Below are positions 14,355 through 33,168 of a stretch of DNA of 64,000 bases, one piece after another. The position numbers and the translations under genes are program-made. Each line of letters opens with the position of its first letter. Positions within the stretch are counted from its first letter, which is position 1. The stretch lies in assembly GCA_018242525.1 (NCBI GenBank), contig JAFEBS010000014.1:8646-72645 (forward strand). The letters run 5' to 3'. The DNA comes from Planctomycetota bacterium (lineage in GTDB: Bacteria; Planctomycetota; Planctomycetia; Planctomycetales; Planctomycetaceae). Under the pieces are notes generated by a model, which had not been told where the DNA came from, searched no databases, and saw nothing but the letters and a program-made list of their open reading frames with translations.

Positions 14355-15263
14355 ATGTCCAAACGGAGTGTTGAAATGCTCAGCCGACGGATGGCCTGGT
14401 TGTTCACCTGTGGAACCGCAGCCGGTTTCCTCTGCTCGTTCGCTCCACAAGATGGTTATTCGGAAGTTTTCCGGAAACGAGCCCCCGTTCGTTCCGGGTT
14501 ACCCGCACATGTCCCGTACGGGCAGGATCGGCCCGCGACCATCGTGGCGATCACCTCAGATGCCGCCGTCGAAGAGCAGGTGTTGCTGGTCTTGAACACC
14601 CCGACTCTGGTTCCCCTCAGTGCCCCGGAAAGCTATCCGTGGCAGGCCTCCGCCAAGCCTTCGGCCGATTCTGTTTTGAATCGACCCTCATTCAGTCCCA
14701 TCATTCGCGGCGGGAATTCCAGAACCGATACCAAGACCGTCGTCGAAACCTCAATCGGGCCCGATGGAACTGCGGTCACCAAACGACTGACCAACGAGAA
14801 TACCGAGTCTGGATCCGGCCCGATGCTCGCCATCGCCGGACAGCACTGGTCGGCTCAGCCCCCCGACGTGCTGGCACCGGCGATGTTTCGTCGCAAGTCG
14901 TTCTCGCTGAAGCAGCCCAGTCTGCAGGCCGACAACGTGACCCTCGACCGTATCGGCCTGGCAATCTACGAAACCGGTCACGTCGCATTGACCGGGCTGG
15001 TTTCCGACACCGGAGGCCAGGACGGACTGACAAAGGGCAGTGACATCACGATTCGAGTCCGAGGCTACGGCATGAACCGCTTGAATTCCCCGACGCTTCC
15101 CAATGGCCCGCTGCACTTTGAAATGAGCAGTAACTGCCGAGTCCTGCGGGGCCGATCCGACGCAATTTCACTCGTCCCACTCCGTTGTTCCGAGACAGTA
15201 CGAGAACACTACGACGAAATCACGCATCTGGAAGTCGTATTGGAGAGTCGACGTAGCAAATAA
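14355..15263 (+). CDS. hypothetical secreted protein
   Basis: ATG 14355 gives MSKRSVEMLSRRMAWLFTCGTAAGFLCSFA, which looks like a signal peptide. No recognised family. Same strand as the secretin gene. Confidence 0.45.
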   Translation: MSKRSVEMLSRRMAWLFTCGTAAGFLCSFAPQDGYSEVFRKRAPVRSGLPAHVPYGQDRPATIVAITSDAAVEEQVLLVLNTPTLVPLSAPESYPWQASAKPSADSVLNRPSFSPIIRGGNSRTDTKTVVETSIGPDGTAVTKRLTNENTESGSGPMLAIAGQHWSAQPPDVLAPAMFRRKSFSLKQPSLQADNVTLDRIGLAIYETGHVALTGLVSDTGGQDGLTKGSDITIRVRGYGMNRLNSPTLPNGPLHFEMSSNCRVLRGRSDAISLVPLRCSETVREHYDEITHLEVVLESRRSK

Positions 15264-15446
15264 TTCGAAGGCTACAATTGATACAGTGAACTCCGCCGTC
15301 CTCAAAGTCGATAAAACCGGTACGGGCCGCAAAGTCGACATGGAGGATTTGATCCGCCATCGGTGTGGCCCCAGTTTTGTCCGCACGATGGCGTTCCAGT
15401 TCGATCGGGAAATGGATTGCCGTCTTGCCCTTGGGGGGGGCTTGTC

Positions 15447-16250
15447 ATGGACGGATTCGTTCCGCCACGGTGGATCGTGCGCCTGTCGGCCGCGACCCTC
15501 TTGTGGAGTGGGTTAGGATGGTGTGAGCACGATCTTTTCGCCCAGCACGGGCGTGTCGGCGGTCTGGATGAACTGGTCATCCTGGATCCCGGCAAGCACG
15601 ACCGGGGCCTGCCCTCCGTTGATTTGATTCCATCCCCGATCGGTACGCAGATCGACATCGCACCGACGACGCATGTCCACCGTTTCTACTACAACGGTGA
15701 CAAGGAGTACCAGGGCCCCTTGATCCAGGGAGGCCCGACAATCGTCGTGGCGACGCATCCCAGGACGAACAAGCGGATGTACATCGACGTGAATCTGCCG
15801 TCGGGTGCTCCGATCATCGTCTACGACAAATGCTCGATCACCTACGTCTACCAGGACCGCCGAGTCGTGCTGGGCTTCGCCCCGCTGAGCGATGAGCGAG
15901 CCAGCGTGACCTATCTGCCCGGCCGCGGCCTGTGCCGTTTGAAGCAGGAACACATCCAGGCCGTCAAGCAGAAACATGTCGCCGCCGCCCAGCAGCACGG
16001 CCTGGGCCACGCAATTCACGATGCTGGTTCCTCGGTGGTCAAAACCGTCTCCGGTGCCTTTGGCACGGTCGGCAAAGTGACCGGCGAATCGATCAACCAT
16101 GTCAAGACGACCGTCGAGCGACTGCCACCCGTCACGCAACTGCAATCAATCGCCAACCAGCGCGCTGAACGGGGATTGCGTGAAGCCAATTCGCAAGCTC
16201 AAAAGCTGAACGAATTGAAGAACCCGGACTTCATCAAGACGAACCGGTAA
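15447..16250 (+). CDS. hypothetical secreted protein (HVHRFYYNGDKEYQGPLIQGGPTIVV motif)
   Basis: ATG 15447 gives MDGFVPPRWIVRLSAATLLWSGLGW. A compact beta-rich core is followed by a helical Gln/Ala-rich C terminus. I cannot name a family. Confidence 0.45.
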   Translation: MDGFVPPRWIVRLSAATLLWSGLGWCEHDLFAQHGRVGGLDELVILDPGKHDRGLPSVDLIPSPIGTQIDIAPTTHVHRFYYNGDKEYQGPLIQGGPTIVVATHPRTNKRMYIDVNLPSGAPIIVYDKCSITYVYQDRRVVLGFAPLSDERASVTYLPGRGLCRLKQEHIQAVKQKHVAAAQQHGLGHAIHDAGSSVVKTVSGAFGTVGKVTGESINHVKTTVERLPPVTQLQSIANQRAERGLREANSQAQKLNELKNPDFIKTNR

Positions 16251-16356
16251 GCCGCGCAGTCACGATATAACGTTGTCGGTTTGGATCTGACGAATACTCC
16301 GATCTACGCAGGCGGGCATGATGCCTCCCTTTTTCCGTCCACGGAAGGACCCAAAA

Positions 16357-19300
16357 ATGAATTTCGGGCCATTCATCAAGGCGAGCTTGCCTCGCATTGC
16401 AATTGTTCTCGGACTATTTGCCGCTATCGAATCCGCTGCTCCCAGCGTTGCATTCGCACAGGGCAAAGGCCCGAAACCAACGGTGGCGGCAGGATTATTT
16501 GCGACCGCCGACCCTGCGGCCATTGCGATTGCACCCGGGACACCGATTCCCACCACGGCCTATATCAAAGTGTCTATGCCTGATGCTGCAGGCGAATTAC
16601 GGATCTTCATCGGAAACACCCGTCAGTTTGCAAAGCGAATCGCAAGTGACTCTACGACCACCAAAATTGTGCCGTTGGATTTGTTCAATATCTCGATGAA
16701 GAGTCCACAAAAGCTGACTGTTGTTTGGACTCCTGACACAATGTCTGCGTCTGACCCGAGTGATCCGATTGACGTTGATATTGACACAGTCGCACCGAGA
16801 GTGACTGGCATTCGACTGGTCGGGGTTTCTGGTGGTCCCGCGACACTTGAAATCCGTTTTGCAGAAGATGACCTTGCCGTGTCAAACTCCTCCGCCGTAG
16901 GAAGTCCGCTTAAGCCAGAGAACTACGTAATTACCCGATCGGCAGGGCTTCCAGGATTTACGAGTGCCGATGGAATTCCAGCAGGGGCGAATCTGAAGCC
17001 AATCCTGAGCGATGACCGAATGACGGTACGGATTGCCTTGGGATCGCTGGCGTCTGATAACTATCAAATCATCATCAGATCGATTCAGGATGGCCACGGA
17101 AATACCATTGATCCCGACAACGTCAAACTGAATTTCACGGCGGCACCCGAGCCTGGAACTGGGAAACATGTCGAGTTCCCCGAATACACGGCCCGCGTCG
17201 AGCGAAACAAGACGGAAGTCTTCAATCCGGGAGATCGTGTGGATACCCGGATGGCACGACTCTATTACTTCCGCGACGCCCACCGCGTCGCTCAGATCAT
17301 CAATCGCAATGTACAATCGTACAACCGTGCTGCGGTGACGATGGCTCAGCAGAACGCCGAAGATTCTCGAAACCTGGCCAATCAAAAGACAGCCGATCGC
17401 AAGCAACGCGAAGCGACTGCGATTCGTGCCGCCGAAGCAACGCGGGCTGCCGAGTCCGAACTTGCTGCCGCCCGCCAGGCCCTGGAAGAAATCCGGGCCG
17501 TCAATGCCCAGGCGACGCAAGGTGCCGCAGCCGCAACTCAAGCAGCGACTGACGCCACTCGCCAGCAGTCAACTCCTGAAATCGAAGCGCTGACGCGACA
17601 GAGCACTGACCTGGGAACGAAAATCACGAGTCTCAACACGGCGATCGATGCAGATCAAACGAGCCTGAACACACTCAATTCAACAATCGCAGCACTGAAT
17701 GTTGATCTCGCTGGGCTACATGCCGAACTCGACGGAGTCCCTGCCGCAATGCAGAACTCGGACTCCGCGAAAGCACTTGTGACAAAAACATCGGACTTGA
17801 ACATAAACACTGCCAAGAAGAAGGCAATCATTGACCGGATGTTGCTGGCCAAGGCGGACTTGGAATCCACGAGTACGCAGAAAGACAAGATCGACGCGAA
17901 AGTCAATGCCCTCAAGAACGAAAACACGGACTTCACCGCGCAGGCCACAGCACTGACTACCCGTGCCACATCCGCACGCACTGCAGCAGTCAGCTTCGCC
18001 GCCAAAGTTGCCGAATTGGAATCCAAGGTTGCCAACCTTCGCGACTCCGAACGCCTGAAACAAGCCGACGTGGACCAGGCGCAGGAAGCCGAGGACCGTG
18101 CCCGCGAAAACCAGTTCCGTGCCGAAGTCGCCGCAGCGACGGCCGACCCAGATACTTATGTTCCAGGCGACGTGAAATCCGTCGATCCGGTCACACGGGT
18201 CTCAGTCAGTGTCATTGGCGAAGGTCTGATTCAACTGCGCGGTCCGATCCGCGGAATCAACAAAATTCGAACGATGATCAGTCAGATCGATGCTCCTGTT
18301 GGTCAGGTCAAGGTGGGAATCTTCACCGTCCAGGTCAACGGCGAGCACGGTGATCGTATGGAAAAAGTTGCCACCCGGATCGAGGGAAATATCGATCTGT
18401 CGCGGTATCTGACGAACCAGTCGCTTGGGCTACTTCGACGGTCGATCCAGGAGATCGCCGGAATGGTCGTCAAGAGTGTCGACCTGGAGATGCGTGGCAA
18501 CCGGCAAGTGGATCGTGATAGACGTTACCTGTATGCCTTTTTTGGCAGAGATTTCGTCGATGAACTCTACGAGATGGATAGCGAATTCCTGCACACGGAA
18601 AACAAGATCCTCTCCATTCACTCGATGGATACAACGAATCAGTCGCAGGCGTTCTTTATCATGGCGCTGGCCAAGAACGACATTCGCCAGATGATCCTGG
18701 AACGGTTCCGACACCTGATTCAATGCGAGATGCCGTGCCTAGAATGGGACTTCCGCCGCTCCGCCGATATGACCCGCAGGATCAAGCATCAGAAACTCAA
18801 CACGCTGGAAGAGGTCACATTCAACGTCCATCAGAAATATCACTTCAGCAATCTGCACGGCTTCTTCAACGCTTGGGTCGACGACACCGACGCAATGACT
18901 CCCATGCAACGCGAGTTCATCCGTCTGGCCCAGATCTTCAAGTCACAGATGGTCGCCGAGATGGAGTACAAACAACGAGTCATCGAGCGAGGGTTGATAG
19001 AGGACCAGGCGAATACAGAGGACGAACTCAACGAACTACTCCAGCCGGTGAGGTCGTCCGCGAATTTGATGATCGTCAAATCCTTGCAGGGCCTGATCGA
19101 GAGTCAGGACAAGATCGCAGAACTTGAGCTTAGCATCCTTGATCTTCTCGGTGGATTGGATGAAGTTCAACTTGATATCGCCGAGCGCGTCAATACATAT
19201 CAGGCAGTTCAGTCAAAAGTTCTGTCTGCACTTCAGTCAAGATCCAGAACCTATTCGCGATTGAGTCTGGCCTTGAAAGCCTCTGAAAACAGAAACATCA

Positions 19301-21567
19301 CGGAACCTGTGCTGGATAGAGCGATTCTTGCAACATCAAATGACAACGAACTTGCGATGTCAATCTTGGGTGCCATGCGCACCTTGCAAAAAGTAAAAGA
19401 CGCTGCTGATGCTGCTGATGCCGACCCAACGAAACCAAAGACCTTGACTACCGAGACCGCCTCCGAAGTGAAGCGATCGATAGACGCATTCATCGAACTT
19501 CTCAAACCACTCGTCGTTAAGAAAGATCTATTTCCGAATGCGTACAGTGACAAGTTTGAAACGGCATATCAACAGTTATCTGAGTTTCCAGTCAATACAT
19601 CAACTACAAATCGGCTTGCCGAAGACATGCTGGGCGCCGCGCTTGCGTATTTTGACCAGCCGTTTTTTAACGGCCAGACGGTCATCGCCGTGGCACAGGC
19701 ATATTTAGGATACGCCGACTCACTAAAGCCTTGTATTACCGCGTATCTTCGAGTGGTACAGGACCCGAAGGTGACATCAAACAATGTGGTCAGAGCTACT
19801 GGAGTCTTGAAAAATGCGGTCGGCAGAATCTATCCTGCAGATCCAACCATGCGTCCTCCGTTTGTTACGACGCTGCTGAGCAATGCAGATGCGTTGATGC
19901 TCAGGCTGTCAGGCGATGAGATTCGCATCGCCAGGGCGAAGTACGTCGGGCGGCGTGTGCGGCAAGACATCGATCATCGTAAGCTCCTTGAATTCCTGAC
20001 GGATGAACAGGAAGAGAAATACATTGAACTTGAAGAGGGATGCCGGTCGCACATCGCTCAGATTGACAACTATTTGAAGCGGTTGGCAATTGCACTCGAA
20101 GACGATTTCAAGGTGCAATTCTACGATCCTGCGTTTGCAGAAGTTCGCCGGGCCAGCCGTGAATGGGACGTTAATCTTGGACAGGTGGAACGCACGACGA
20201 TTCTGACCAACAATCGGGCACTGGCCAAGGTGAGTCCTCAGGCAACGATGGAATTTGATCTCCCGAAACGCGACATCATGATTACCGAGGCAATGACCGG
20301 GGCAAAGGCGATCGTCAACGAATATGGAACGTTGTTGCAAGACCCGACGTTTCTGAGTGTAACGGGAATGTTGAGCGGGTCGCCCGCGGTCGGGGGCGTC
20401 GCCGGACGAGGGCCAATTCCGGGACTGCCGGGGCAGGGCCTGGGAGCCGCCGGAGTGCGAAATGTGCTGCCGGGACAGTCCACGGATGCCACCGAGCAGT
20501 TGATGGCGCAAACCGGCGGTCCGGCGCGTCAATTTGGATCCGAGTTCGAGAAACTGATTCCTGACCCGGCCGTGTACAAGATCGAAACCGGGACTGGTTT
20601 TGAAGTCCGGCCCGTGATTCAACCCGATGGTCACAGCATCATTTACGATTTCGATTACATGTACACCACGAACATTCGCGAGCCGGTTCGGCCGGATGAA
20701 AAGCACCTGGGACGGGTCAAACGTCACTTCATTCATACCGAAGTGCAGACGTCCAGCTTTGAATTGCGGGAAATCAGTCGTTATCAAGTTGCTTTAAAGG
20801 TGTCGCGAACAAGTCGCGGTGTCCCATTGATGGAAGATATCCCTGGTGTCGGAGTCCTGTTCCGCCCGTTGCCGAGTGCCGAATCATCCCTGCAGCAGAA
20901 CATCATTCTTGGTCAGTCGACCGTGTATCCAACACTGTTTGACTTGATGGGACTTCGCTGGTCGAAGTATGTGGTCGATCTCGATCATCTGGGGTTGCGG
21001 GATCTGGAACATGTCGTCCGTGGACGAAACACGACGATCCACGACTTCACCTTTGACGAGGGCTCGCGGCGGGTCGACGAATTCCTGGACATTGAAACCA
21101 AGGACAAGCAGCACGTACGGAGCGATTTGTATCGTCAACAACGCCAACCGTCGCCATATCATCCGGGGGGATACCAGAACACCAGGCTCAAAGATGGAAG
21201 CGATCCAACCGGTCGGGAGTACGATCGCCCGGACACTCGCCCGGAGGACTTTCGGGAACCTCCCTACGACAACAAGTATCGAGTGCCGGTCGAAAACCTG
21301 CCGACGCGTGGAACGCGAACGGAAACTATCGAGATCCGCGGGGGCCTGGAAGCACCACAGATTCCAAATTCAGGGCTCAGTAATCCGAGCTTGAATTCCG
21401 TTCCGGAGCGAGTCAATATCCGCCCCATGAGTTATGAAGCCCCGGCGCCGGTCAAATCGGATCGCGGTGCAACCAAGCCTAACTCGAAGTCAACGAACGC
21501 GCCGCCGCCGCCGACAAAACGCCCCCAGTTACTCAGATTTCCCTCGATGGGCGTCCGCAAGAGCTGA
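16357..21567 (+). CDS. giant secretin-family outer-membrane protein with Ig-like domain and two large helical insertions
   Basis: Signal peptide MNFGPFIKASLPRIAIVLGLFAAIESAAPSVAFA. An Ig-like DTVAPRVTGIRLVG segment. A secretin N-type domain split as ARLYYFRDAHRVAQIINRNV ... VSVSVIGEGLIQLRGPIRGINKIRTMISQIDAPVGQVKVGIFTVQVNGE. The C-terminal secretin core has FEVRPVIQPDGHSIIYDFDY, RHFIHTEVQTSSFELREI and GVPLMEDIPGVGVLFRP (the VPxLxDIPxxGxLF signature). Confidence 0.75.
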   Translation: MNFGPFIKASLPRIAIVLGLFAAIESAAPSVAFAQGKGPKPTVAAGLFATADPAAIAIAPGTPIPTTAYIKVSMPDAAGELRIFIGNTRQFAKRIASDSTTTKIVPLDLFNISMKSPQKLTVVWTPDTMSASDPSDPIDVDIDTVAPRVTGIRLVGVSGGPATLEIRFAEDDLAVSNSSAVGSPLKPENYVITRSAGLPGFTSADGIPAGANLKPILSDDRMTVRIALGSLASDNYQIIIRSIQDGHGNTIDPDNVKLNFTAAPEPGTGKHVEFPEYTARVERNKTEVFNPGDRVDTRMARLYYFRDAHRVAQIINRNVQSYNRAAVTMAQQNAEDSRNLANQKTADRKQREATAIRAAEATRAAESELAAARQALEEIRAVNAQATQGAAAATQAATDATRQQSTPEIEALTRQSTDLGTKITSLNTAIDADQTSLNTLNSTIAALNVDLAGLHAELDGVPAAMQNSDSAKALVTKTSDLNINTAKKKAIIDRMLLAKADLESTSTQKDKIDAKVNALKNENTDFTAQATALTTRATSARTAAVSFAAKVAELESKVANLRDSERLKQADVDQAQEAEDRARENQFRAEVAAATADPDTYVPGDVKSVDPVTRVSVSVIGEGLIQLRGPIRGINKIRTMISQIDAPVGQVKVGIFTVQVNGEHGDRMEKVATRIEGNIDLSRYLTNQSLGLLRRSIQEIAGMVVKSVDLEMRGNRQVDRDRRYLYAFFGRDFVDELYEMDSEFLHTENKILSIHSMDTTNQSQAFFIMALAKNDIRQMILERFRHLIQCEMPCLEWDFRRSADMTRRIKHQKLNTLEEVTFNVHQKYHFSNLHGFFNAWVDDTDAMTPMQREFIRLAQIFKSQMVAEMEYKQRVIERGLIEDQANTEDELNELLQPVRSSANLMIVKSLQGLIESQDKIAELELSILDLLGGLDEVQLDIAERVNTYQAVQSKVLSALQSRSRTYSRLSLALKASENRNITEPVLDRAILATSNDNELAMSILGAMRTLQKVKDAADAADADPTKPKTLTTETASEVKRSIDAFIELLKPLVVKKDLFPNAYSDKFETAYQQLSEFPVNTSTTNRLAEDMLGAALAYFDQPFFNGQTVIAVAQAYLGYADSLKPCITAYLRVVQDPKVTSNNVVRATGVLKNAVGRIYPADPTMRPPFVTTLLSNADALMLRLSGDEIRIARAKYVGRRVRQDIDHRKLLEFLTDEQEEKYIELEEGCRSHIAQIDNYLKRLAIALEDDFKVQFYDPAFAEVRRASREWDVNLGQVERTTILTNNRALAKVSPQATMEFDLPKRDIMITEAMTGAKAIVNEYGTLLQDPTFLSVTGMLSGSPAVGGVAGRGPIPGLPGQGLGAAGVRNVLPGQSTDATEQLMAQTGGPARQFGSEFEKLIPDPAVYKIETGTGFEVRPVIQPDGHSIIYDFDYMYTTNIREPVRPDEKHLGRVKRHFIHTEVQTSSFELREISRYQVALKVSRTSRGVPLMEDIPGVGVLFRPLPSAESSLQQNIILGQSTVYPTLFDLMGLRWSKYVVDLDHLGLRDLEHVVRGRNTTIHDFTFDEGSRRVDEFLDIETKDKQHVRSDLYRQQRQPSPYHPGGYQNTRLKDGSDPTGREYDRPDTRPEDFREPPYDNKYRVPVENLPTRGTRTETIEIRGGLEAPQIPNSGLSNPSLNSVPERVNIRPMSYEAPAPVKSDRGATKPNSKSTNAPPPPTKRPQLLRFPSMGVRKS

Positions 21568-21599
21568 TGACCAACTGGCGACACCACAAATATCGATTT

Positions 21600-21605
21600 A
21601 GGAGG
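21600..21605 (+). promoter_or_regulatory. Shine-Dalgarno AGGAGG, 7 nt upstream of ATG 21613
   Basis: Perfect AGGAGG in TTTAGGAGGATTAAGAATG. Confidence 0.6.
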
Positions 21606-21612
21606 ATTAAGA

Positions 21613-22248
21613 ATGGCTAGGGGAAAGATCGTTGTTAAGTTGACAATCCCATTCGTCCGCCCGGACGGTGGAGGTTCGCTACTGGATATTGAAGGCGATA
21701 CGACAGGGCTTGTTGACGGAATGTCAGTCGATTATCACGTTGTGGATGGGTTGGCCGTCATCGATAGTGGCCTCCAATCCGTCGCTGCGGAGAGTCCGAC
21801 CAAAGGAACAATCGTTGTTAAGTTGACAATTCCGTTCGTCCGTCCAGCAGGTGGCGGTTCACTGCTGGACATTGATGGCGATACGACAGGGCTTATTGAC
21901 GGGATGTCCGTCGATTATCATGTTGTGGATGGGTTGGCCGTCATCGGCAGCGCCCCGCCCGTCGCGGCGGAGAGCCCGATCTCAATCCCCAATCGGGCAC
22001 CTGCCAGGAAGGCTGCAAAGAAAGCAGCGAGCACGGCATCATCCTCCAGGAAGGCTGCGAAGAAGTCTTCGGCCAAGCCTGCAAGTTCCAAGAAGACCGT
22101 CAAAAGGCAGGCCACCTCCAAGAAGGCTGCAAAAGCGGCAACCGCGAAGTCAGTTTCCAAGAAGGTGATGAAGAAGGCTGCCGTCAAGTCCGCGAGTTCC
22201 AAGAAGGCCATCAAGAAGAAAGCTTCCTCCAAGAAGAAACTCAAATAA
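21613..22248 (+). CDS. protein with two tandem ~61-aa beta-rich modules and a histone-H1-like Lys/Ala/Ser-rich C-terminal tail
   Basis: G(K/T)IVVKLTIPFVRP(D/A)GGGSLLDI(E/D)GDTTGL(V/I)DGMSVDYHVVDGLAVI occurs twice. The tail is ...PARKAAKKAASTASSSRKAAKKSSAKPASSKKTVKRQATSKKAAKAATAKSVSKKVMKKAAVKSASSKKAIKKKASSKKKLK. No signal peptide. Strong SD. Confidence 0.7.
   Translation: MARGKIVVKLTIPFVRPDGGGSLLDIEGDTTGLVDGMSVDYHVVDGLAVIDSGLQSVAAESPTKGTIVVKLTIPFVRPAGGGSLLDIDGDTTGLIDGMSVDYHVVDGLAVIGSAPPVAAESPISIPNRAPARKAAKKAASTASSSRKAAKKSSAKPASSKKTVKRQATSKKAAKAATAKSVSKKVMKKAAVKSASSKKAIKKKASSKKKLK
21622..21987 (+). repeat. intragenic tandem duplication, period 183 nt (second unit 180 nt)
   Basis: Hand alignment of the 141-nt cores gives about 17 mismatches (about 88% identity) and 43/47 identical residues. 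Most nucleotide differences are synonymous. Confidence 0.8.
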
Positions 22249-22281
22249 TCGACGAAGCCTAAAAAGCATCCGCCAGGTCAG

Positions 22282-23313
22282 TCATTTCTGAGAATCCCGC
22301 TCACCCTGCAGTTTGTCGCGCCGCTGTTGCAATTCATCTCGTTCACGCTGCAGTTTGTCCCGCGCATCCTGAAGAGTCTCACGTTCGATCTGCAGTTTGT
22401 CCCGCACACTCTGCAGACTGGCGGCTTTTGCCGCCTCGGCTTTCAGCGCATCTCTTTGGTGACTGAAATCGGCCTCTCGACCGATCTGCAGGGCATCCCG
22501 CTCAGACTGCAACTTGTCACGTCGCTGTTGAAGTGCGTCACGTTCGTCTTGAAGTGTGTTACGGGCATCCTGCATCGCATCTCGAGCAGCTTGATCCTTA
22601 ATGGAGGCCAAGTCCCGTGCATCCAGGTCCCGCTTTCGTTTGCTCAGCACTTTCGGCTGAATGGCCATCAGAGCCTTGATGTCCTTCGTCAGTTCCGAGA
22701 TTTCGGATTTCAATTCAGATACTTCCTGCGTCGTTGCATTTGCTTTCGTGATCGAAGCTTGGTCTGGATGCCTCGAGACGACAAGCGTGCCTGTGCCGCC
22801 AACCGATACGTTGATCGTGGCATTCTTCAAGACACGCTGATGTTGATCTACGACGACAATCTCAACCGCCTTGGAAAGGACACCAATCGGTAAGTTCAAT
22901 TCGTATTGGCGAACCGGATCCGTTGAAGTTGTTCGCTGCCCATCAATAATCACGACCGCATTACCGGGGCAGGCAACGCTCAGACGAAATGTTGAAGGCA
23001 GGACCACCACCCCAAGTGGACTCACGACGAGATGCGAGGCTGATCCATCGGTGGCTGCGAGAATCGGAGCGGAATTCATCGCAAGTGGAGCCATGTCCGA
23101 ACAGACTGAGCAGCTAACGGAAAGAGTCGGGGACGCGACCAGTACCGGATTGGTCATGCGTGGAGCCCAGGGCTGATCGTATCCAAACGTGCGTTTCGGA
23201 CACTGTTCCACGCGGTCTCGACTGATCGCGTGTTTCGCCGGAATCAAAAGTACCGCAGATAGAAGTACCAAGTAGAGCGAACGGAATCGGATCATTGTTT
23301 CTCCAAGTTTCAT
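22282..23313 (-). CDS. secreted protein: TIGR03000-like beta domain + long ERDxLQ heptad coiled coil
   Basis: Signal peptide (MKLGET)MIRFRSLYLVLLSAVLLIPAKHAIS. FRLSVACPGNAVVIIDGQRTTSTDPVRQYELNLP resembles the planctomycete TIGR03000 domain pattern. The C-terminal half carries repeated RDALQ/RDKLQ/RDELQ heptads. Paralogue of the next gene. Confidence 0.6.
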   Translation of the reverse strand: MKLGETMIRFRSLYLVLLSAVLLIPAKHAISRDRVEQCPKRTFGYDQPWAPRMTNPVLVASPTLSVSCSVCSDMAPLAMNSAPILAATDGSASHLVVSPLGVVVLPSTFRLSVACPGNAVVIIDGQRTTSTDPVRQYELNLPIGVLSKAVEIVVVDQHQRVLKNATINVSVGGTGTLVVSRHPDQASITKANATTQEVSELKSEISELTKDIKALMAIQPKVLSKRKRDLDARDLASIKDQAARDAMQDARNTLQDERDALQQRRDKLQSERDALQIGREADFSHQRDALKAEAAKAASLQSVRDKLQIERETLQDARDKLQRERDELQQRRDKLQGERDSQK

Positions 23314-23375
23314 TTTATCGGAAGGATCAACAAGTTCATTGTTTCACAGGATGGTAACGAATCCGTCCAGCCAGT

Positions 23376-24011
23376 CTATTTCTTTGCATCGCGCTCTTTT
23401 TGCAACTGGTCGCGACGCATCTGCAATTGATCGCGTTCGGTCTGCAGTTTGTCACGTTGAAGTTGCAACGTGTCGCGTTCGTCCTGCAGTTTGTCGACTT
23501 CACGTTTGCGGGCTTCGAGTGCCTCGGCGGTACTCCGAAGTTTTTTCAATTCCGCGCTGACCACGCTGGGTACGACAACAGTCTTTGACTGTCCAGACGT
23601 GGCTGGCATTCGATCATTCAGGACTGGTTCCAGACCATCTTGAAGGACGAGGACATCAAGTTCGACCATCGACTTGGGGACGGAAATATCGTATTGGCGG
23701 ATTCTTTCCGTCGACGACGTCAGTCGACCGTTGATGATCACTACTGCATCGCTCGGGCAGACGACACACAGTCGAAATGGGGCACCGTCGGACTCCGCCA
23801 GATTCAGGGTCTCAACACGCGGATCGGTGGTTTGCCGATTCGCCTGAGATGAAGGAGCGGCAGGTATTGAACGGTCGGTTGTCGGTCCCATTGTTGGTGC
23901 GCAGTTTATTGCCTGGACAAACACACCCCGCCTGTCACGAGCAATCGCTGCATTCGTCAACGTCGCCAAGGTTACGATGAAAAGCGTTAGGCCCAAAGCG
24001 CGACACCGCAT
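23376..24011 (-). CDS. secreted protein: TIGR03000-like beta domain + ERDxLQ heptad coiled coil (shorter paralogue)
   Basis: Signal peptide MRCRALGLTLFIVTLATLTNAAIA, then FRLCVVCPSDAVVIINGRLTSSTERIRQYDISVP. The C terminus is DKLQDERDTLQLQRDKLQTERDQLQMRRDQLQKERD. Start taken at ATG 24011. Confidence 0.6.
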   Translation of the reverse strand: MRCRALGLTLFIVTLATLTNAAIARDRRGVFVQAINCAPTMGPTTDRSIPAAPSSQANRQTTDPRVETLNLAESDGAPFRLCVVCPSDAVVIINGRLTSSTERIRQYDISVPKSMVELDVLVLQDGLEPVLNDRMPATSGQSKTVVVPSVVSAELKKLRSTAEALEARKREVDKLQDERDTLQLQRDKLQTERDQLQMRRDQLQKERDAKK

Positions 24012-24500
24012 GGTCAAGTCTCCAGCAAACAATGGGGGTTCACAGGGAAATGAAGCGTTCCGGAAAAACGCATCACTCGTGAAAATGTTAATGTGCGCAG
24101 AATATCCAGACAAGCCTGGCGGCGCGACTTGGTACGCCACACAGGAAGATTATTTGCCAGAGTGTCGCGGCGCAGGATGGGCCGAGTCCGAACGGACGGC
24201 GTCACGTGGTTGGCGACGGAACGTCCATCCGACCATTTTTCAGGACACGGATCGCCCTACTTGATCGCTCGGTTCAGCAGGTTCTGTGTGATCTTCTGCA
24301 CTCGTGCGTCCGGGTCGTGGGGTCGGCTCCAGTGCGACCATGGCAGCATGTGACAGAAACAAAAAGGAAGGTGCGGCGAACCCACAATCCGATCCGTCAC
24401 TTCAAACTTCCAGATATAAAGTCGTTACCCGCGTTGAGTGCCACCCCGGCAATTACAGCCGTAGTGCCAGCCGGTATCATCGGATGCGATCAGTGACGCG

Positions 24501-24519
24501 CCGACGCAGGCAGCGTCGG
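24501..24519. repeat. 19-nt hairpin motif CCGACGC-AGGCA-GCGTCGG downstream of the yidD stop (copy of 4010..4028)
   Basis: Matches the 4010 copy at 18/19 nt, with the single difference in the loop. It lies 11 nt after the yidD stop. Confidence 0.5.
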
Positions 24520-24530
24520 GTACGCTTGCT

Positions 24531-24767
24531 TCAAGGAGGATCGTAGCCGCCAGGATGCCAGGGGTGGCAACGGCAGATTCGCCAGACCCCTTTGGTGGCA
24601 CCGCGAACCGCGCCATACTTGCTGACCGCCTGTATGAAGTAGTGACTGCAGGACGGTTCGAAGCGACAGTGTCTCCCCAGCAGGGGGCCAATGAACAACT
24701 GGTAGAAGCGGACTCCCAGGATCAGCAGTTGTCCCGGCAGTTGCCAGATCCAAGTCTGGACGTTCAT
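24531..24767 (-). CDS. yidD: membrane protein insertion efficiency factor YidD
   Basis: 78 aa with YQLFIGPLLGRHCRFEPSCSHYFIQAVSKYG...RICRCHPWHPGGYDP, the canonical YidD Cys pattern. Its ATG overlaps the rnpA stop (ATGA). Confidence 0.9.
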   Translation of the reverse strand: MNVQTWIWQLPGQLLILGVRFYQLFIGPLLGRHCRFEPSCSHYFIQAVSKYGAVRGATKGVWRICRCHPWHPGGYDPP

Positions 24768-25144
24768 GACGGGGCGTCCTCCGGGGGGCGGTCCCGATCC
24801 AGTCGTCGAGTCAACCGCTTGACCAGGCCGATCAGTGACTGGCGGTAAGCCGATAAAGACGCTCGATCTCCCGCCAGGGGGATTGCGATCAGATCCACTC
24901 CCGTCGAGAACTGGTGTCGTTCCAGGCGAAACGCTTCGCGCAGCCAGCGTTTCAGGCGGTTTCGCTGGACGGCTCCGCCATGTTTTTTGGAAACGCTCAG
25001 GCCAATCCGAGTCACCGGCAGGTCATTGCGCGCCACGAACAACAGCAGGACTCCGTCGGCCCCTTTGCACTTCAGTGCATAGACCCGCTCAAAGTCGCGG
25101 CCAGTCCGCAGGTGATGTGTCGCTGGAAACGGAAAGGTTTGCAT
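24764..25144 (-). CDS. rnpA: ribonuclease P protein component
   Basis: 126 aa with LRTGRDFERVY...RIGLSVSKKHGGAVQRNRLKRWLREAFR (the RNR motif region). Sits directly upstream of yidD. Confidence 0.9.
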   Translation of the reverse strand: MQTFPFPATHHLRTGRDFERVYALKCKGADGVLLLFVARNDLPVTRIGLSVSKKHGGAVQRNRLKRWLREAFRLERHQFSTGVDLIAIPLAGDRASLSAYRQSLIGLVKRLTRRLDRDRPPEDAPS

Positions 25145-27693: not shown

Positions 27694-27787
27694 TGAGATC
27701 TCCGGTGGCCCGGACAGATCAGGAAATTCGCCAGAAAAATGAACAAACCAGGCCGCTCGCGCGGTATCTTGGCTGGAGTGGCAACTC

Positions 27788-27863
27788 GTGGTAAAAGGGG
27801 GCTGACCCTCGCAGGGCGTACGATTTTCGTATGCCCTCCAAAGGGTCAGACCCCTTTTACCAC
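27788..27863. repeat. 76-nt imperfect palindromic element (GTGGTAAAAGGGG.CTGACCCT ... AGGGTCAG.CCCCTTTTACCAC with a nested inner hairpin)
   Basis: The outer arms match at 21/22 nt. The inner arms AGGGCGTACGA/TCGTATGCCCT match at 10/11. A third partial arm (GACCCCTTTAACCAC) follows at about 27868-27882. Confidence 0.6.
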
Positions 27864-27927
27864 GGCAGACCCCTTTAACCACGGGCTGCTCGACTCTCGA
27901 ACACGTTTCCCTTGTTGGAATCCCGCT

Positions 27928-29274
27928 GTGCCGATCCAGAATTTGCAATTCATCCGGCTGGTCCTGCTCCTGGCGGTTGTCGCCGCGACGCTGTCGCAGG
28001 GAATCAGTCACGCTCAAGCTCGAGTTTCTCCGGTAGTTGTTTCTCCGGTGGCCGAACGAACGACGGCGACAGCCCAGACGTTCGTGGGTACCGTCTTGCC
28101 GGTCAAGAAGAGTGCGGTAGGTTCGGCTGTGGACGGTCGAGTCGTGGAATATCCCATCAACGAAGGGGACCGCGTCACCAAAGGGCAACCGCTGGCCATC
28201 CTGCTGACTGAAACGATCAAACTCTCCATCGTGGCCGCTGAGGGAGAACTGAAGCTGCGAAAGGAAGAACTGGCCGAAATGGTGAACGGCTGGCGCAAGG
28301 AAGAAATCCTGCAATCGGCCGCCCAGATGGAAGTTTCGCGCGCCCGCCGTGACTACGCGATTGCCCGCTTCAAACGTACGGCCTCGCTGGTCGAAAAGGG
28401 ACAATCCGGGACGCTGGATCAGATGGAAGAAGATCGTGCGACGTCAACGGCCGCTGAGCAGCAGTATGAATCGGACCGACTGGCGCTGGAACTGATGAAG
28501 CAGGGGCATCGCCCGGAAAAGATTGAGCAGTCGCGAGCCAAGGTTGCCGAACAGGAGGCGATCGTGGAACAGCTACGCGATCAACTGAAGAAGCATACGA
28601 TGATTGCGCCCTTCGATGGTTACATCGTGGCGGAACGGACGGAGGTCGGTGAATGGGTGACCCGTGGCCAGGTTGTGGCCGAAGTGATTTACCTGGACGA
28701 AGTGGACGTGGAAGCACACGTGCTCGATACGCAAATTGAACATGTGCGGATCGGTGCCCCTGTTCGTGTCGAAATCCCCGCCTTGAAAACCACGGTGTTT
28801 GTAGGCGAGGTCAAGGTCATCACCCCGCAGGCCGACGTTCGGTCTCGGACGTTTCCGGTTAAGGTTCGGATCAAGAATGTCATCCGCGACGATGGTCCGC
28901 TGCTGAAGGCGGGGATGTTGGCTCGAGCCGCATTGCCCACGGGTGAACAGCGACAATCTATTCTAGTTCCCAAGGACGCGATCGTCCTGGGAGGCCAGTC
29001 CCCGATGGTTTGGGTGGTCGTGCCGACTGACGAAGCCGACTTGAAGGGGGTGGATCCCAAGGGACCCCAGCCGTCTGGCAAAGTGCGTCCCGTTCCGGTC
29101 GAAATGGGGGTCGCCGACGGCAACTGGATCGCGATCAATGGCCCGTTGAAAGCCGATCAGCAGGTTGTAGTGGTGGGGAATGAGCGGCTGCAACCGGGAC
29201 AGTTGATCTCGATCATCGAAATCCAGAAGCCACCTGTGACGGAGGCTGTTCTGAAGGGTGACGAAGCCCGGTGA
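27928..29274 (+). CDS. efflux RND periplasmic adaptor (membrane fusion protein, HlyD family)
   Basis: Lipoyl/beta-barrel MFP layout: VGTVLPVKKSAVGSAVDGRVVEYPINEGDRVTKGQPLA, a long coiled-coil hairpin, then MIAPFDGYIVAERTEVGEWV. The GTG 27928 start is proposed so that the upstream palindrome is not translated. The gene sits immediately upstream of the RND pump. Confidence 0.8.
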   Translation: MPIQNLQFIRLVLLLAVVAATLSQGISHAQARVSPVVVSPVAERTTATAQTFVGTVLPVKKSAVGSAVDGRVVEYPINEGDRVTKGQPLAILLTETIKLSIVAAEGELKLRKEELAEMVNGWRKEEILQSAAQMEVSRARRDYAIARFKRTASLVEKGQSGTLDQMEEDRATSTAAEQQYESDRLALELMKQGHRPEKIEQSRAKVAEQEAIVEQLRDQLKKHTMIAPFDGYIVAERTEVGEWVTRGQVVAEVIYLDEVDVEAHVLDTQIEHVRIGAPVRVEIPALKTTVFVGEVKVITPQADVRSRTFPVKVRIKNVIRDDGPLLKAGMLARAALPTGEQRQSILVPKDAIVLGGQSPMVWVVVPTDEADLKGVDPKGPQPSGKVRPVPVEMGVADGNWIAINGPLKADQQVVVVGNERLQPGQLISIIEIQKPPVTEAVLKGDEAR

Positions 29275-29340
29275 CATTGCCGTGGCACCGCCGCGTTGAC
29301 CGCTTTATCTGACGACAGTTTTTCCGATTGAGCCCATCCG

Positions 29341-32300
29341 ATGTCGCTCGTTGAAACGTTTGTGAAGAATCCCGTCAAAGTCACGGTCGCCGTGCTGTTG
29401 ATGTCGCTGTTCGGGATCATTTCCCTGATCTCGATGCCGATGCAATTGACTCCGGAAGTGCAGACTCCGTCGCTGACCATCACGACGACCTGGCCCGGTG
29501 CCAGTCCGCAGGAAATCGAGCAGGAGATTGTCCGCGAGCAGGAAGAAAAGCTGAAGAGCGTGGAAGGGATTACCAAGCTGTCCTCGGAAAGTACCGATTC
29601 CCTGGGGACCATCACGCTTGAGTTCGCGGTCGGAACGGACATGGACGAAGCGCTGTTGAAGGTCAATAGCCACCTGCAGCAGGTGACCTCCTATCCTGAA
29701 AACGCCGATCAACCAGTGATCAGCACCTCGAACTCCGCCAATCAGCCGATTGCCTGGTTTGTGCTGACGGTCAAGCCTCCGACAGACGACGACGTCCGAG
29801 ATTTTCAAGCGAAGCATCCGGAAATCGCCGACAAGTTCAATACCGTCTTGAGCGGTGCCAGCAGCGGAGTAAAGATGTATCGTCTTCGGGAACTGGTGAA
29901 AGAACACCCCGAAGCCGGCAGCCTGCTGCCTCCGCACATTGAAGTCACCAAGTTGCGGCGGTTTGCGGAAGACTACATCGAATCGACGTTTGAGCGGGTT
30001 CCCGGCGTCGCCAACGCCGATGTGATCGGCGGTCTGATCGATGAATTGCAGGTGGTCGTCGATCCCGAGGAACTGGCGGCGCGTCAACTGACGATCTACG
30101 ACATCCGTAATGCGCTGCGAGGCCAGAACAAAGACACTTCGGGGGGCGATTTCTGGGAAGGGAAACGGCGCTGGGTCGTCCGGACACTGAACCAGTTTCG
30201 ATCCAAGGAGCAGGTTGAACGGCAGTTGCTGGCAGTCCGCGACGGCAAGCCCGTCTATGTGTCGGATGTGGCAACCGTGCAGGATGGATTTCGCAAGCCG
30301 GATGGACTCGTTCGGCGGTTCGGATCGGACAGTATCGCGGTTCGGGTCCTGCGCGAGAACAACGCGAACGTGCTGGATGTGATGGAGGGACTGCGGGCCG
30401 CCAATGCCAAGCTCAACGAATCGCTGCTGGCCCGGCGACACCTGGAATTGACCCAGGTCTACGATGAAACCGAGTACATTTATTCCGCCATCAACCTGGT
30501 CCGCGAAAACATCTTCCTGGGCGGTGCCCTGACGATGGTAGTCCTGATGGTGTTCCTGCACCTGAACCGCCGGACGCTGTTGATTGCCCCGCTGATTCTG
30601 GCGACGGGACTGGCGGCGGTGTATGTCAGCCCGTGGTACTTTGCCGCGTGTCTGGCTCTGATCGTTGCTTCTGGATTGTGGTACGCCCGCGGTGCCCTGG
30701 TGATCGGTCTGGCAATTCCCACGTCGATCATCGGGACATTTCTGATCATGGCCCTGCTGGGACGTTCATTGAACGTCATCAGTCTGGCGGGACTGGCGTT
30801 TGCGGTGGGGATGCTGGTCGACAACGCAATCGTGGTGCTGGAAAACATCTTCAGCCGGTGGGAACAGGGGGAAACTCCGCTCGAAGCCACGGTTCGCGGC
30901 ACCCAGGAGGTCTGGGGTGCCATCCTCGCCTCGTCGCTGACGACGGTGGCCGTCTTCCTGCCGGTCATTTTCGTTCAGGAAGAGGCGGGGCAACTGTTTC
31001 GTGATATCGCGCTGGCAATCGCCGGGGCCGTTGGATTGTCGGTAGTCGTCGCCATCGTCGTGATTCCTCCGGCAGCGGCACGAATCCTGGGGCGACGACG
31101 CGATCCGGGCCACGCTGCCGACGGTGCCGGTTCGATTCCGTCCACAAATGGGGCGGGACACGTCATCGTCGGTGGAGCCTCGGCAACAACTGCGAGCACA
31201 GCCACGGGAATTGTGTGGGTGTTCGAGTCGATCGGGACTCTGGCGCTGAACACGGTCACGGCGATCAATCGCCTGATCCAGTCTCACGTTGTGACGCGCC
31301 TGGCGACGGTGGGCCTGTTGATTGGTGCCTGTGTCGCTCTGACGTGGCTCTGGTGGCCCTCGGTCGAATACCTGCCCAACGGAAATCGGAATCTGATCTT
31401 TGCGATCCTGATCCCGCCCCCAGGATACAACATGGACAAGTTGACCGAGATGGGGGAGCAGGTGGAAGCCGATCTGAAGCCGTTCTGGAATGTCGATCCC
31501 GGCAGCCCTGAGGCCAAACAGATGAAGACGCCGCTGATCGCGGACCTGTTTTTCGTCGCACGTGGTAAGGCTGTGTTCATTGGAGCGCGCGCGTCGGACG
31601 CAACCAGAGCCGCCGAGTTGATTCCCATCATCCGTGGTGTCGGGGCGAAGATCCCGGGTACGTTTGCGGTGGTGTTTCAGTCCAGCCTGTTTTCGCAGGG
31701 CCTGACGGCGGGACGATCCATTGACATTGAAATCACCGGGCCCGAACTGACCAAACTGGTTCAATTCGGGGGCCGGATCCTGGGGGGCGACCGTCCGGAC
31801 ATGCCGGTGCAGATTCTGAAGCCCATCGGAGCGTTGATTCCGGGTGCCCAAGCCCGCCCCGTCCCCAGCCTGGATCTTTCCAGTCCGGAACTCCACGTCC
31901 GCCCACTGCTGATTCAATCGGCCGAAATGGGAATGAGTGCCGCGGAACTGGGATACACCGTCGATGCACTGGTCGACGGAGCCTACGCGGGCGACTATTT
32001 CCTGGGAAGCGACAAGATCGACCTGACAATCCGGGGCCGCGATCAATTCAGCCGACAGACACAAGATGTCGCGAATCTTCCAATTGCGACCCCCACCGGC
32101 CAACTGATCCCGTTGGCGGCACTGGCGGATGTGACGCTGGCAAGCGGACCCGAACAGGTGAACCATCGCGAGCGTGAACGAGCGATCACGATCCAGGTGT
32201 CGCCCCCGGCCGAAGTTCCACTCGATGCCGCCATGCGGATCATTCAAACTCAAATCGTTGATCCCCTCAATAAATCGGGGCAACTGGATGGCGGTTACCG

Positions 32301-32970
32301 GATCGTCCTGGCAGGGACTGCAGACAAACTGCGGGAAACGTGGAAGGCTCTGCAGTTCAACGTGATCCTGGCGCTGGTGATCACGTATCTGCTGATGGCG
32401 GCGCTTTACGAATCGTGGGTCTATCCGTTTATCATCATCTTCAGTGTCCCGCTGGGGGCAGTTGGTGGTCTGGGGGGACTGGTGCTGCTGAATGTCTATC
32501 TCAGATTCCTGGGACAACCTCCGCAAATGCTCGACGTACTGACGATGCTGGGGTTTGTGATTCTGATCGGGACCGTGGTGAACAATGCCATCCTGATCGT
32601 CGATCAGGCCCTGCACTTGATCCGGCAGCAGGGGGCCACGGACCGCGCCGCAGTGATCGAAGCGGTCCACTCGCGCATGCGTCCGATGCTGATGACCACG
32701 ATTACCACGGTCCTGGGACTGTTGCCGCTGGTCCTGTTCCCGGGGGCCGGAAGTGAGCTTTATCGGGGTCTGGGTGCGGTCGTCCTGGCAGGCCTGGTCG
32801 TGTCGACCGTCGTCACATTGTTCCTGATCCCGACGATGTTTACCCTGACCCGAGATTTCCAGAGGTTCCTGTGGATCCTGATCTTCGGTCGCCAGGGAGC
32901 CACCCGGGCGCCTGATGGATCGGGCGCGTCAACTCCGTCAGAACCTGAGCCTGCCAGCATGCTGTCGTAG
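29341..32970 (+). CDS. RND efflux transporter permease (AcrB/HAE family)
   Basis: 1209 aa. The N terminus is FVKNPVKVTVAVLLMSLFGIISLISMPMQLTPEV. 12-TM/2-loop architecture with GLAFAVGMLVDNAIVVLENI and GFVILIGTVVNNAILIVD motifs. Confidence 0.95.
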   Translation: MSLVETFVKNPVKVTVAVLLMSLFGIISLISMPMQLTPEVQTPSLTITTTWPGASPQEIEQEIVREQEEKLKSVEGITKLSSESTDSLGTITLEFAVGTDMDEALLKVNSHLQQVTSYPENADQPVISTSNSANQPIAWFVLTVKPPTDDDVRDFQAKHPEIADKFNTVLSGASSGVKMYRLRELVKEHPEAGSLLPPHIEVTKLRRFAEDYIESTFERVPGVANADVIGGLIDELQVVVDPEELAARQLTIYDIRNALRGQNKDTSGGDFWEGKRRWVVRTLNQFRSKEQVERQLLAVRDGKPVYVSDVATVQDGFRKPDGLVRRFGSDSIAVRVLRENNANVLDVMEGLRAANAKLNESLLARRHLELTQVYDETEYIYSAINLVRENIFLGGALTMVVLMVFLHLNRRTLLIAPLILATGLAAVYVSPWYFAACLALIVASGLWYARGALVIGLAIPTSIIGTFLIMALLGRSLNVISLAGLAFAVGMLVDNAIVVLENIFSRWEQGETPLEATVRGTQEVWGAILASSLTTVAVFLPVIFVQEEAGQLFRDIALAIAGAVGLSVVVAIVVIPPAAARILGRRRDPGHAADGAGSIPSTNGAGHVIVGGASATTASTATGIVWVFESIGTLALNTVTAINRLIQSHVVTRLATVGLLIGACVALTWLWWPSVEYLPNGNRNLIFAILIPPPGYNMDKLTEMGEQVEADLKPFWNVDPGSPEAKQMKTPLIADLFFVARGKAVFIGARASDATRAAELIPIIRGVGAKIPGTFAVVFQSSLFSQGLTAGRSIDIEITGPELTKLVQFGGRILGGDRPDMPVQILKPIGALIPGAQARPVPSLDLSSPELHVRPLLIQSAEMGMSAAELGYTVDALVDGAYAGDYFLGSDKIDLTIRGRDQFSRQTQDVANLPIATPTGQLIPLAALADVTLASGPEQVNHRERERAITIQVSPPAEVPLDAAMRIIQTQIVDPLNKSGQLDGGYRIVLAGTADKLRETWKALQFNVILALVITYLLMAALYESWVYPFIIIFSVPLGAVGGLGGLVLLNVYLRFLGQPPQMLDVLTMLGFVILIGTVVNNAILIVDQALHLIRQQGATDRAAVIEAVHSRMRPMLMTTITTVLGLLPLVLFPGAGSELYRGLGAVVLAGLVVSTVVTLFLIPTMFTLTRDFQRFLWILIFGRQGATRAPDGSGASTPSEPEPASMLS

Positions 32971-33168
32971 CGCTGGCGAAATGCCAGACTCCTGTTGACG
33001 GCTGAAACCAGCACGATATTGCCGTCGACCGTTGGACGCGGTTTTACTATATTCCGCGCGCCGGCCGGTGTCGGCCGACAGCGACGAGGGAGCGTCGAGT
33101 GCCTCTTCGTCGCCACTTCGTGCGTTGGCACGTGCCGCGCTGATCAGTCCCTTGTTGGCTGGTGAATC

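Follow-up and report, generated by a model that had tools for sequence, protein, structure and literature searches.

We analysed a 64,000-nt stretch of DNA from a Planctomycetota bacterium (GenBank assembly GCA_018242525.1, contig JAFEBS010000014.1, positions 8,646 to 72,645 of the forward strand; hereafter the window), centring on the gene for a giant protein that an earlier reading of the sequence, here called the original prediction, had described as a giant secretin. Several major export and pilus machines of bacteria use secretins as their gates in the outer membrane. Our results point to a module of three genes, encoding the giant secretin relative and two smaller proteins, g1 (related to a family that we call C2) and g2, which recurs throughout the Planctomycetia and would build an outer-membrane transport ring with dedicated partners; we give this reading a probability of about 0.6. 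It builds directly on the secretin fold found in the model of the giant, the strict linkage of the three genes, their two gene orders and the lack of a linked ATPase or platform gene. The original prediction had instead joined six neighbouring genes (g1, g2, the giant gene, g4, g5 and g6) into one envelope system; all six are present in the open reading frame (ORF) list at the positions and on the strands that it gave (Table 1).

Scanning one genome per species yielded 161 stretches with relatives of the giant, and the best 80 of these were examined. The loci span Pirellulales, Planctomycetales, Gemmatales and Isosphaerales, with Blastopirellula marina, Rhodopirellula baltica, Stieleria sedimenti and Gemmata algarum among the cultured carriers; a single locus labelled Nealsonbacteria is probably a binning error. 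Linkage was counted by running family hidden Markov models (HMMs) on six-frame ORFs over ~20 kb per locus, and the 49 loci with at least 2.5 kb on either side of the giant gene were taken as having full flanks. A g2 gene lies no more than 2.5 kb from the giant gene in all 49 of these, a g1/C2 gene in 48/49 and a gene of a further family, C3, in 32/49. The strand of the giant gene is shared by 70 of 71 g2 matches and 71 of 72 g1/C2 matches, and within the ~20 kb of each locus no match to either family was found more than 2.5 kb away. A reciprocal look-up from two g2 homologues reached g1-like, g2 and giant genes. Neighbourhood conservation was the check that the original prediction had set for its block: g1/C2 and g2 come through it, g5 and g6 do so within the clade of the window only, and g4, for which no homologue was found, does not. 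The conserved unit is three genes (g1/C2, g2 and giant), not six.

ORF clustering separated two gene orders, types A and B (Table 1), and this division tracks the clades of the C-terminal-domain sequences exactly. In type-B loci the gap between the giant gene and C2 has a median of 37 nt. Genomes of both Pirellulales and Planctomycetales occur in both types, and the split therefore suggests an old duplication. The g1 and C2 families are homologous by hhalign (probability 99%, E = 6.6e-18); by this profile comparison, g1, which always sits directly ahead of g2, represents the C2 family in type-A loci.

The case for a secretin comes from structure prediction. An AlphaFold2 model of giant residues 590-1749, built as a single chain from 46 sequences, has a predicted local distance difference test (pLDDT) score of 68 and a predicted template modelling (pTM) score of 0.56. 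When this model was compared with the PDB by Foldseek, each of the 28 best matches was a secretin (E = 4.6e-5 to 1e-3, probability 1.0). They include InvG, PilQ, GspD/ExeD/EpsD and the secretin of the Shigella type III secretion system (T3SS), and cover T3SS, type IV pilus (T4P) and type II secretion system (T2SS) machines; RcpA, from the tight adherence (Tad) machinery, and BfpB appear farther down the list. Against viral structures, the model gave one match, to an unnamed entry, at E = 5.5e-4, the rest being coiled-coil noise. The Pfam Secretin family (PF00263) matches 13 of the 20 aligned relatives, below or near its threshold (best E = 1.2e-5), and one relative, P0062, carries a precomputed PF00263 match; in the giant itself, the alignment covers aa 1421-1516 and profile positions 54-148 of 169. 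On the strength of the model, the C-terminal domain of the giant is predicted to have a secretin-type beta-hairpin fold.

Several observations weigh against a secretin that forms a transport ring. The match of the giant to PF00263 scores 12.4 bits (E = 0.12), short of the 27.5-bit cut-off. The Foldseek template modelling (TM) scores are low, at 0.09 when normalised to the query and 0.26 when normalised to the target, because a 1160-residue monomer is being compared with barrel protomers, and the model is itself a monomer of moderate confidence. Searches of PDB sequences with the whole giant, the family profile and the C-terminal-domain profile returned coiled-coil noise or spurious designed-repeat matches and no significant secretin. 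Run against 1.84 billion representative proteins, the C-terminal-domain profile collected 572 clusters (50% identity), and the 150 matches listed all belong to the giant family; the abundant canonical secretins were therefore evidently not retrieved. Beyond the fold, g1 and g2 are similar to no known pilotin or docking protein (in Pfam and, for g2, by Foldseek against the PDB), and the putative oligomer, pore and transport role are carried over from secretins elsewhere. As judged by HMMER, the giant family is an island, and its 75 homologues of 1200-2500 aa come from planctomycetes in every case where the source is named. The label in the original prediction is apt for the fold seen by Foldseek and fails as a database call. 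We place the giant far out in the secretin superfamily and outside any known secretin system.

The giant is built from alternating conserved and variable parts (Table 1). Its true start is more likely ATG 16357 than 16318; this ATG is preceded by GGAAGGA and opens straight into signal-like sequence (MNFGPFIKASLPRIAIVLGLFAAIESAAPSVAFAQ). The N-terminal region is variable, and some relatives give bacterial immunoglobulin (Ig)-like matches there. Two conserved segments follow, set apart by a variable coiled coil. The first may be one half, the N-terminal one, of a secretin-N-like domain that the coiled coil has split; the second resembles the junction of a secretin N domain with the first barrel strand, and model strand 74-86 (giant residues 663-675) falls within it. 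The helical insertion then lies between this first strand and the remaining secretin core; conservation covers ~200 aa at its start, and the sequence beyond them is variable. The hairpins of the beta core correspond to model residues 696-726 and 829-948 (giant 1285-1315 and 1418-1537), and no part of the family is better conserved than this core (mean column identity of ~70% in alignment A4). The proline-rich tail at the C-terminal end is of low confidence (pLDDT <50 from model residue 1072 on). Overall, the model makes over half of the giant helical or coiled coil.

Pfam searches of the full giant found no match to N0, N1-N3/Secretin_N (PF03958) or AMIN. Splicing the two conserved segments together as a split Secretin_N domain likewise returned nothing in Pfam, and the idea is kept only as a lead spotted by eye. 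A profile of the spliced segments has weak similarity to PilQ at the N3-to-barrel junction (6w6m, E = 0.44; 8co1, E = 2.5), where the alignment falls on V. cholerae PilQ residues 302-330. At two loci (L087:8376-13454 and L088:7181-12259) the giant is called as fragments (285 aa, 925 aa and others) along near-continuous tblastn similarity, a pattern that points to frameshifts, assembly errors or a pseudogene.

Pfam has no match for the partner families g1/C2, g2 and C3, and hhalign among the C3, g1/C2, g2 and g5/g6 families gave no link other than that between g1 and C2. N-termini were called heuristically, as basic residues followed by a hydrophobic stretch. By this rule g1 and g2 are signal-peptide proteins, as had been proposed, and the giant, g5 and g6 also have signal-peptide-like N-termini; g4 has none. 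Past the signal peptide, the six proteins contain no transmembrane-like segment, save for a single window at residue 94 of g5.

In g2, helices come after a beta-rich domain whose sequence is highly conserved (HVHRxYYxGDKEYQGP...GGPT.VVA.HP). The AlphaFold2 model of g2 has a pLDDT of 74 overall and ~90 in the beta domain (residues 43-158); Foldseek found nothing in the PDB better than E = 0.17, and the PDB holds no sequence relative either. Across 37 g2 homologues (alignment A3), an N-terminal Cys or lipobox is not conserved. The extreme C terminus (window 16225-16250) carries a near-invariant F..T.R motif in the same alignment, which may be a docking or sorting signal. The C3 proteins, encoded upstream of the giant in type-B loci, join a very variable N-terminal part, 200-1300 aa long and made of coiled-coil, Ig-like or other sequence, to a conserved ~150-aa C-terminal domain; examples are L077:5141-7867, L041:5629-7134 and L009:6209-8236, and the family has no counterpart in the window.

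In 84 loci, the surroundings of the giant gene include no conserved gene for a secretion ATPase, an inner-membrane platform, a prepilin peptidase or any other recognisable machine component, and the 64-kb window contains no secretion ATPase, platform or prepilin peptidase. The recurrent neighbours are DUF1501, PSCyt/PSD1, WD40, patatin-like and DUF1559 genes. These families are very abundant in planctomycetes, and we judged them to lie outside the module. Among them, 11 loci (L036:1693-5142 and 10 other type-B loci) have near the giant a gene for a ~1150-aa protein whose N-terminal domain is a patatin-like phospholipase (PF01734, E = 6.7e-9), in most cases upstream of the giant and frequently on the other strand. 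Pseudopilin-like DUF1559 genes, which encode a methylation motif at the N terminus, lie no more than a few kb from the giant in four loci (L077:18251-19456, L002, L032 and L062). In Blastopirellula marina, the region on the downstream side of the giant locus is flanked by two copies of an integrase/transposase-like ORF (L020:16148-17467 and 21789-22571).

In the mechanism that we favour, the C-terminal secretin beta core most likely lets the giant assemble into an outer-membrane ring like those of other secretins. The ~580-residue helical insertion, the ~260-residue coiled coil and the N-terminal region would then form large appendages of the ring. By analogy with other secretin systems, its dedicated partners in the periplasm or the outer membrane would be g1 and g2, serving in assembly, docking or gating, and the complex may move a macromolecule or fibre, its putative cargo, through the planctomycete outer membrane.

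With GspD/PulD, InvG, PilQ and RcpA (PF00263), the giant shares a signal peptide, a predicted outer-membrane location and a C-terminal beta-hairpin core of ~260 aa that matches their structures. Unlike the T2SS, T3SS, T4P and Tad secretins, it is 2-4 times larger, with ~580 aa of helices inserted after the first strand and ~260 aa of coiled coil; it gives no N0/N1/Secretin_N/AMIN match, stays below the PF00263 threshold, and its profiles miss the canonical secretins. It also differs from the T2SS, T4P and Tad systems in having no linked ATPase, platform or pilin genes, its invariant partners coming from families without a name. Like pilotins (GspS/PulS, AspS and PilF) and docking proteins (PilP, the GspC HR domain and TsaP), g1 and g2 are small and secreted, and their genes adjoin and are co-inherited with a secretin gene, from which we infer a partner role. 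In contrast to those proteins, they show no similarity in sequence or fold (nothing in Pfam; Foldseek E of at least 0.17 for g2), and g2 has no conserved lipobox.

Among the alternatives, the best placed, though still unlikely, is that the giant serves a T2SS, T4P or Tad machine of the conventional kind whose ATPase, platform and pilin genes lie elsewhere in the genome, with g1 and g2 as pilotin or docking proteins. Its secretin fold would suit that role, and other bacteria do have secretin genes that lie apart from those of their machines. Across the 80+ loci, however, genes for an ATPase, a platform or a prepilin peptidase are nowhere conserved, nor are any present in the window, and the helical insertion, the coiled coil and the lack of a recognisable N0/N1 set the giant apart from all T2SS, T4P and Tad secretins. 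The pseudopilin-like DUF1559 genes near the giant count in favour of such a machine; given the abundance of this family, their presence in four loci may be chance.

We rate somewhat lower the idea that the giant is mainly a structural tether or scaffold, in which a degenerate secretin ring carries long arms of helix and coiled coil that fasten the outer membrane to the cell wall or to the cytoplasmic membrane. In its favour, helices and coiled coil make up over half of the protein, and the secretin core has diverged strongly from those of transport secretins. The high conservation of the beta core (~70% mean column identity, A4), by contrast, implies that the ring is under strong constraint, and no peptidoglycan-binding or membrane-anchor domain was detected. 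The tether and the machine encoded elsewhere both overlap with the transport ring that we prefer.

The module may also bear on the crateriform structures, outer-membrane complexes unique to planctomycetes that have press-stud-like contacts with the cytoplasmic membrane and dextran-binding fibres (PMC5394234). The protein composition of these structures is unreported (PMC5394234, PMC12673574), and the players in planctomycete outer-membrane complexes and large-polymer uptake are described in reviews as not known (PMC12673574). Because of the overlap in taxa, a pore fold whose helical arms are very long, and the existence of two paralogous types, the giant and its two partners can be put forward as candidates for the outer-membrane core of crateriform structures, in which case the 'large' and 'small' crateriform types could be the counterparts of types A and B; we consider this identification doubtful. 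The two are alike in being planctomycete-specific, with all named giant loci coming from Planctomycetia-type genomes, a link of taxon overlap and plausibility. Phycisphaeraceae have been reported to lack crateriform structures (PMC8882080), and none of the 80 giant loci examined is labelled as Phycisphaerae.

A literature search found no description of a planctomycete giant secretin family, and the three-gene secretin module is previously undescribed. A whole class carries a secretin relative of 2-4 times the usual size that is interrupted by helices, unlinked from the usual motor genes and locked to two proteins without known relatives or a matching fold. The module supplies concrete, genetically tractable candidates for planctomycete outer-membrane complexes and polymer uptake; were it the crateriform core, it would be tied to the fibres implicated in whole-polysaccharide uptake. 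Even if it proved unrelated to crateriform structures, it would widen the architecture of the secretin superfamily and define two new partner families, and should interest specialists in secretion systems and in planctomycete cell biology.

The remaining genes of the block behave differently from the three-gene unit. The g4 gene begins 45 nt behind the stop codon of the giant, with AGGAGG 7 nt ahead of its ATG, and encodes two tandem ~66-aa modules, 86% identical, followed by a lysine/alanine-rich tail; its spacing, strong Shine-Dalgarno lead and duplicated modules are all as first described. No homologue was found among 5.8 billion proteins, and PF00313, the cold-shock domain (CSD) family, gave no match even at E up to 5. 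The tail returned low-complexity matches only in NCBIfam, and g4 was placed in neither the histone-H1-like nor the CSD group.

In relatives, the slot at the 3' side of the giant often holds small Lys-rich or CSD proteins that lack a signal peptide and are mutually unrelated in sequence (Table 1), and 7 of the 14 Lys-rich ORFs of all loci lie no more than 200 nt downstream of the giant end. In L085 and L086 the slot encodes a protein with multiple CSDs (match to PF00313 above threshold, E = 1.8e-8), in L082 a 194-aa protein that, like g4, has two tandem modules and a KA-rich tail (weak CSD match, E = 0.028), and in L081 an 89-aa basic protein. With no signal peptide and with such slot analogues, g4 therefore looks like a cytoplasmic nucleic-acid binder and not an envelope part. 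It is probably a nucleic-acid-binding protein of the cytoplasm that stands outside the core module; it is a basic protein specific to its lineage, possibly acting as a nucleic-acid binder or regulator. Its place as an envelope component in the original prediction is not upheld.

The g5 and g6 proteins are paralogues (BLASTP E = 5e-22, 32% identity) and, with their signal-like N-termini, retain the earlier description as convergently encoded, secreted coiled-coil proteins. g5 combines a ~70-aa beta domain (FRLSVACPGNAVVIIDGQRTTS..RQY) with a coiled coil of RDxLQxE heptads. In both genes, 21-nt tandem repeats (22295-22563; 23420-23496) encode the RDxLQxE heptads of the C-terminal coiled coil, which suggests that the repeat number has expanded or contracted between them. 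For the central domain, a resemblance to the planctomycete TIGR03000 domain was considered; NCBIfam gave no such match at E up to 0.1, and the label was dropped.

A tblastn search of the first 80 loci found no g5 or g6. An HMM iterated from their central domain matched convergent genes right after the giant in the window, L081, L082/83, L002, L005, L013, L014 and L037, the exceptions being L015 (marginal) and one match 5 kb off in a type-B locus. Another group of secreted proteins encoded downstream (L003, L015, L018-L020, L022 and L045) is linked to g5/g6 by hhalign at a probability of 71% only. The two most closely related contigs, L081 and L082, repeat the layout of the window. L081 has a sulfatase gene, g1 (78% identical), g2 (90%), the giant (58%), the 89-aa basic protein and three convergent g5/g6 paralogues, g6 being 69% identical to the gene in the same position. 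L082 has g1, g2, the giant, the 194-aa slot protein and one convergent g5-like gene. g5 and g6 are fast-evolving neighbours confined to the clade of the window and outside the invariant unit; they could be secreted accessories or simple neighbours.

The original proposal, in which the six genes together encode a single self-contained, envelope-spanning system with a pore, coiled-coil proteins of the periplasm and a protein with a basic tail, is the least probable of these explanations: although the layout recurs in L081 and L082 (g1-g2-giant, a small basic protein and one to three convergent g5/g6 paralogues), the g5/g6 HMM matches almost only genes right after the giant and 7/14 Lys-rich ORFs fall within 200 nt past it, g4 has neither a homologue nor a signal peptide, the slot proteins of relatives are unrelated in sequence and some are CSD proteins, type-B loci lack g5/g6 bar one match 5 kb away, the six proteins include no inner-membrane component, no ATPase or platform gene is conserved, the borders of the block are not conserved, and g5 and g6 lie on the opposite strand, downstream of yidD-rnpA.

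Table 1. Genes, protein segments and gene orders of the giant locus. Coordinates are those of the window unless a locus is named; aa numbers are those of the giant ORF.
Feature	Coordinates or loci	Strand	Description
g1	14355..15263	+	302 aa; ORF list
g2	15447..16250	+	267 aa; ORF list
Giant ORF	16318..21567	+	1749 aa (1736 aa from ATG 16357)
Giant, conserved segment, aa 283-346	17164..17355	+	ARLYYFRDAHRVAQIINR; conserved columns in family alignment A1
Giant, variable coiled coil, aa 347-610	17356..18147	+	poorly conserved A1 columns; SMC-type coiled-coil noise in NCBIfam
Giant, conserved segment, aa 618-700	18169..18417	+	VSISVIGEGLIQLRGPI.GINKIRTMI.QIDAPVGQVKVGI.TVQVNGE; invariant columns in A1 and A2
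Giant, helical insertion, aa 701-1284 (~580 residues)	18418..20169	+	AlphaFold2 helices, model residues 89-691
Giant, predicted secretin-fold beta core, aa 1285-1545	20170..20952	+	includes ...GVPLMEDIPGVGVLFRPLPSAESSLQQNIILGQSTVYPT
Giant, C-terminal extension, aa 1546-1749	20953..21564	+	helix at model residues 979-1000, then Pro-rich tail
g4	21613..22248	+	211 aa
g5	22282..23313	-	343 aa
g6	23376..24011	-	211 aa
yidD	24531-24767	-	3' flank of block
rnpA	24764-25144	-	3' flank of block
Slot proteins behind the giant gene	window 21613-22248; L082:15488-16072; L081:15365-15634; L085:14019-14810; L080:13726-14652; L014:15826-16356		
Type A order: g1 - g2 - giant	window and ~20 loci		ORF clustering
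Type B order: C3 - giant - C2 - g2	most loci		ORF clustering

The block is bordered upstream by a sulfatase gene (PF00884, E = 1e-41) and downstream by rnpA-yidD, both as the original prediction had recorded, with dnaJ on the minus strand past yidD-rnpA. These borders are not conserved beyond the closest relative, and that of the sulfatase recurs in L081 only. Above threshold, Pfam and NCBIfam matched 0/6 block proteins, in agreement with the earlier view that none of the six had a confidently nameable function. The lower guanine-plus-cytosine (GC) content noted for much of the block holds over 16-24 kb (0.50-0.565 vs 0.58-0.64 in the flanks) but not for g1 and g2 (0.59). Horizontal transfer was rejected as its cause in view of the vertical conservation of the giant gene throughout the class; the amino-acid composition of the coiled coils is the more likely source.

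Rfam and tRNA scans of 13.5-25.5 kb found no RNA gene, and a promoter/terminator scan gave counts at background level. The ~520 nt between yidD and g6 (24012-24530) hold no convincing ORF, Rfam match or tRNA, and the promoter of g6-g5 presumably lies there. Farther along the window, past the housekeeping genes, 27739-36747 encodes an HlyD-type adaptor, an AcrB-family resistance-nodulation-division (RND) pump and a 1193-aa DUF748 protein, a group unrelated to the giant secretin relative.

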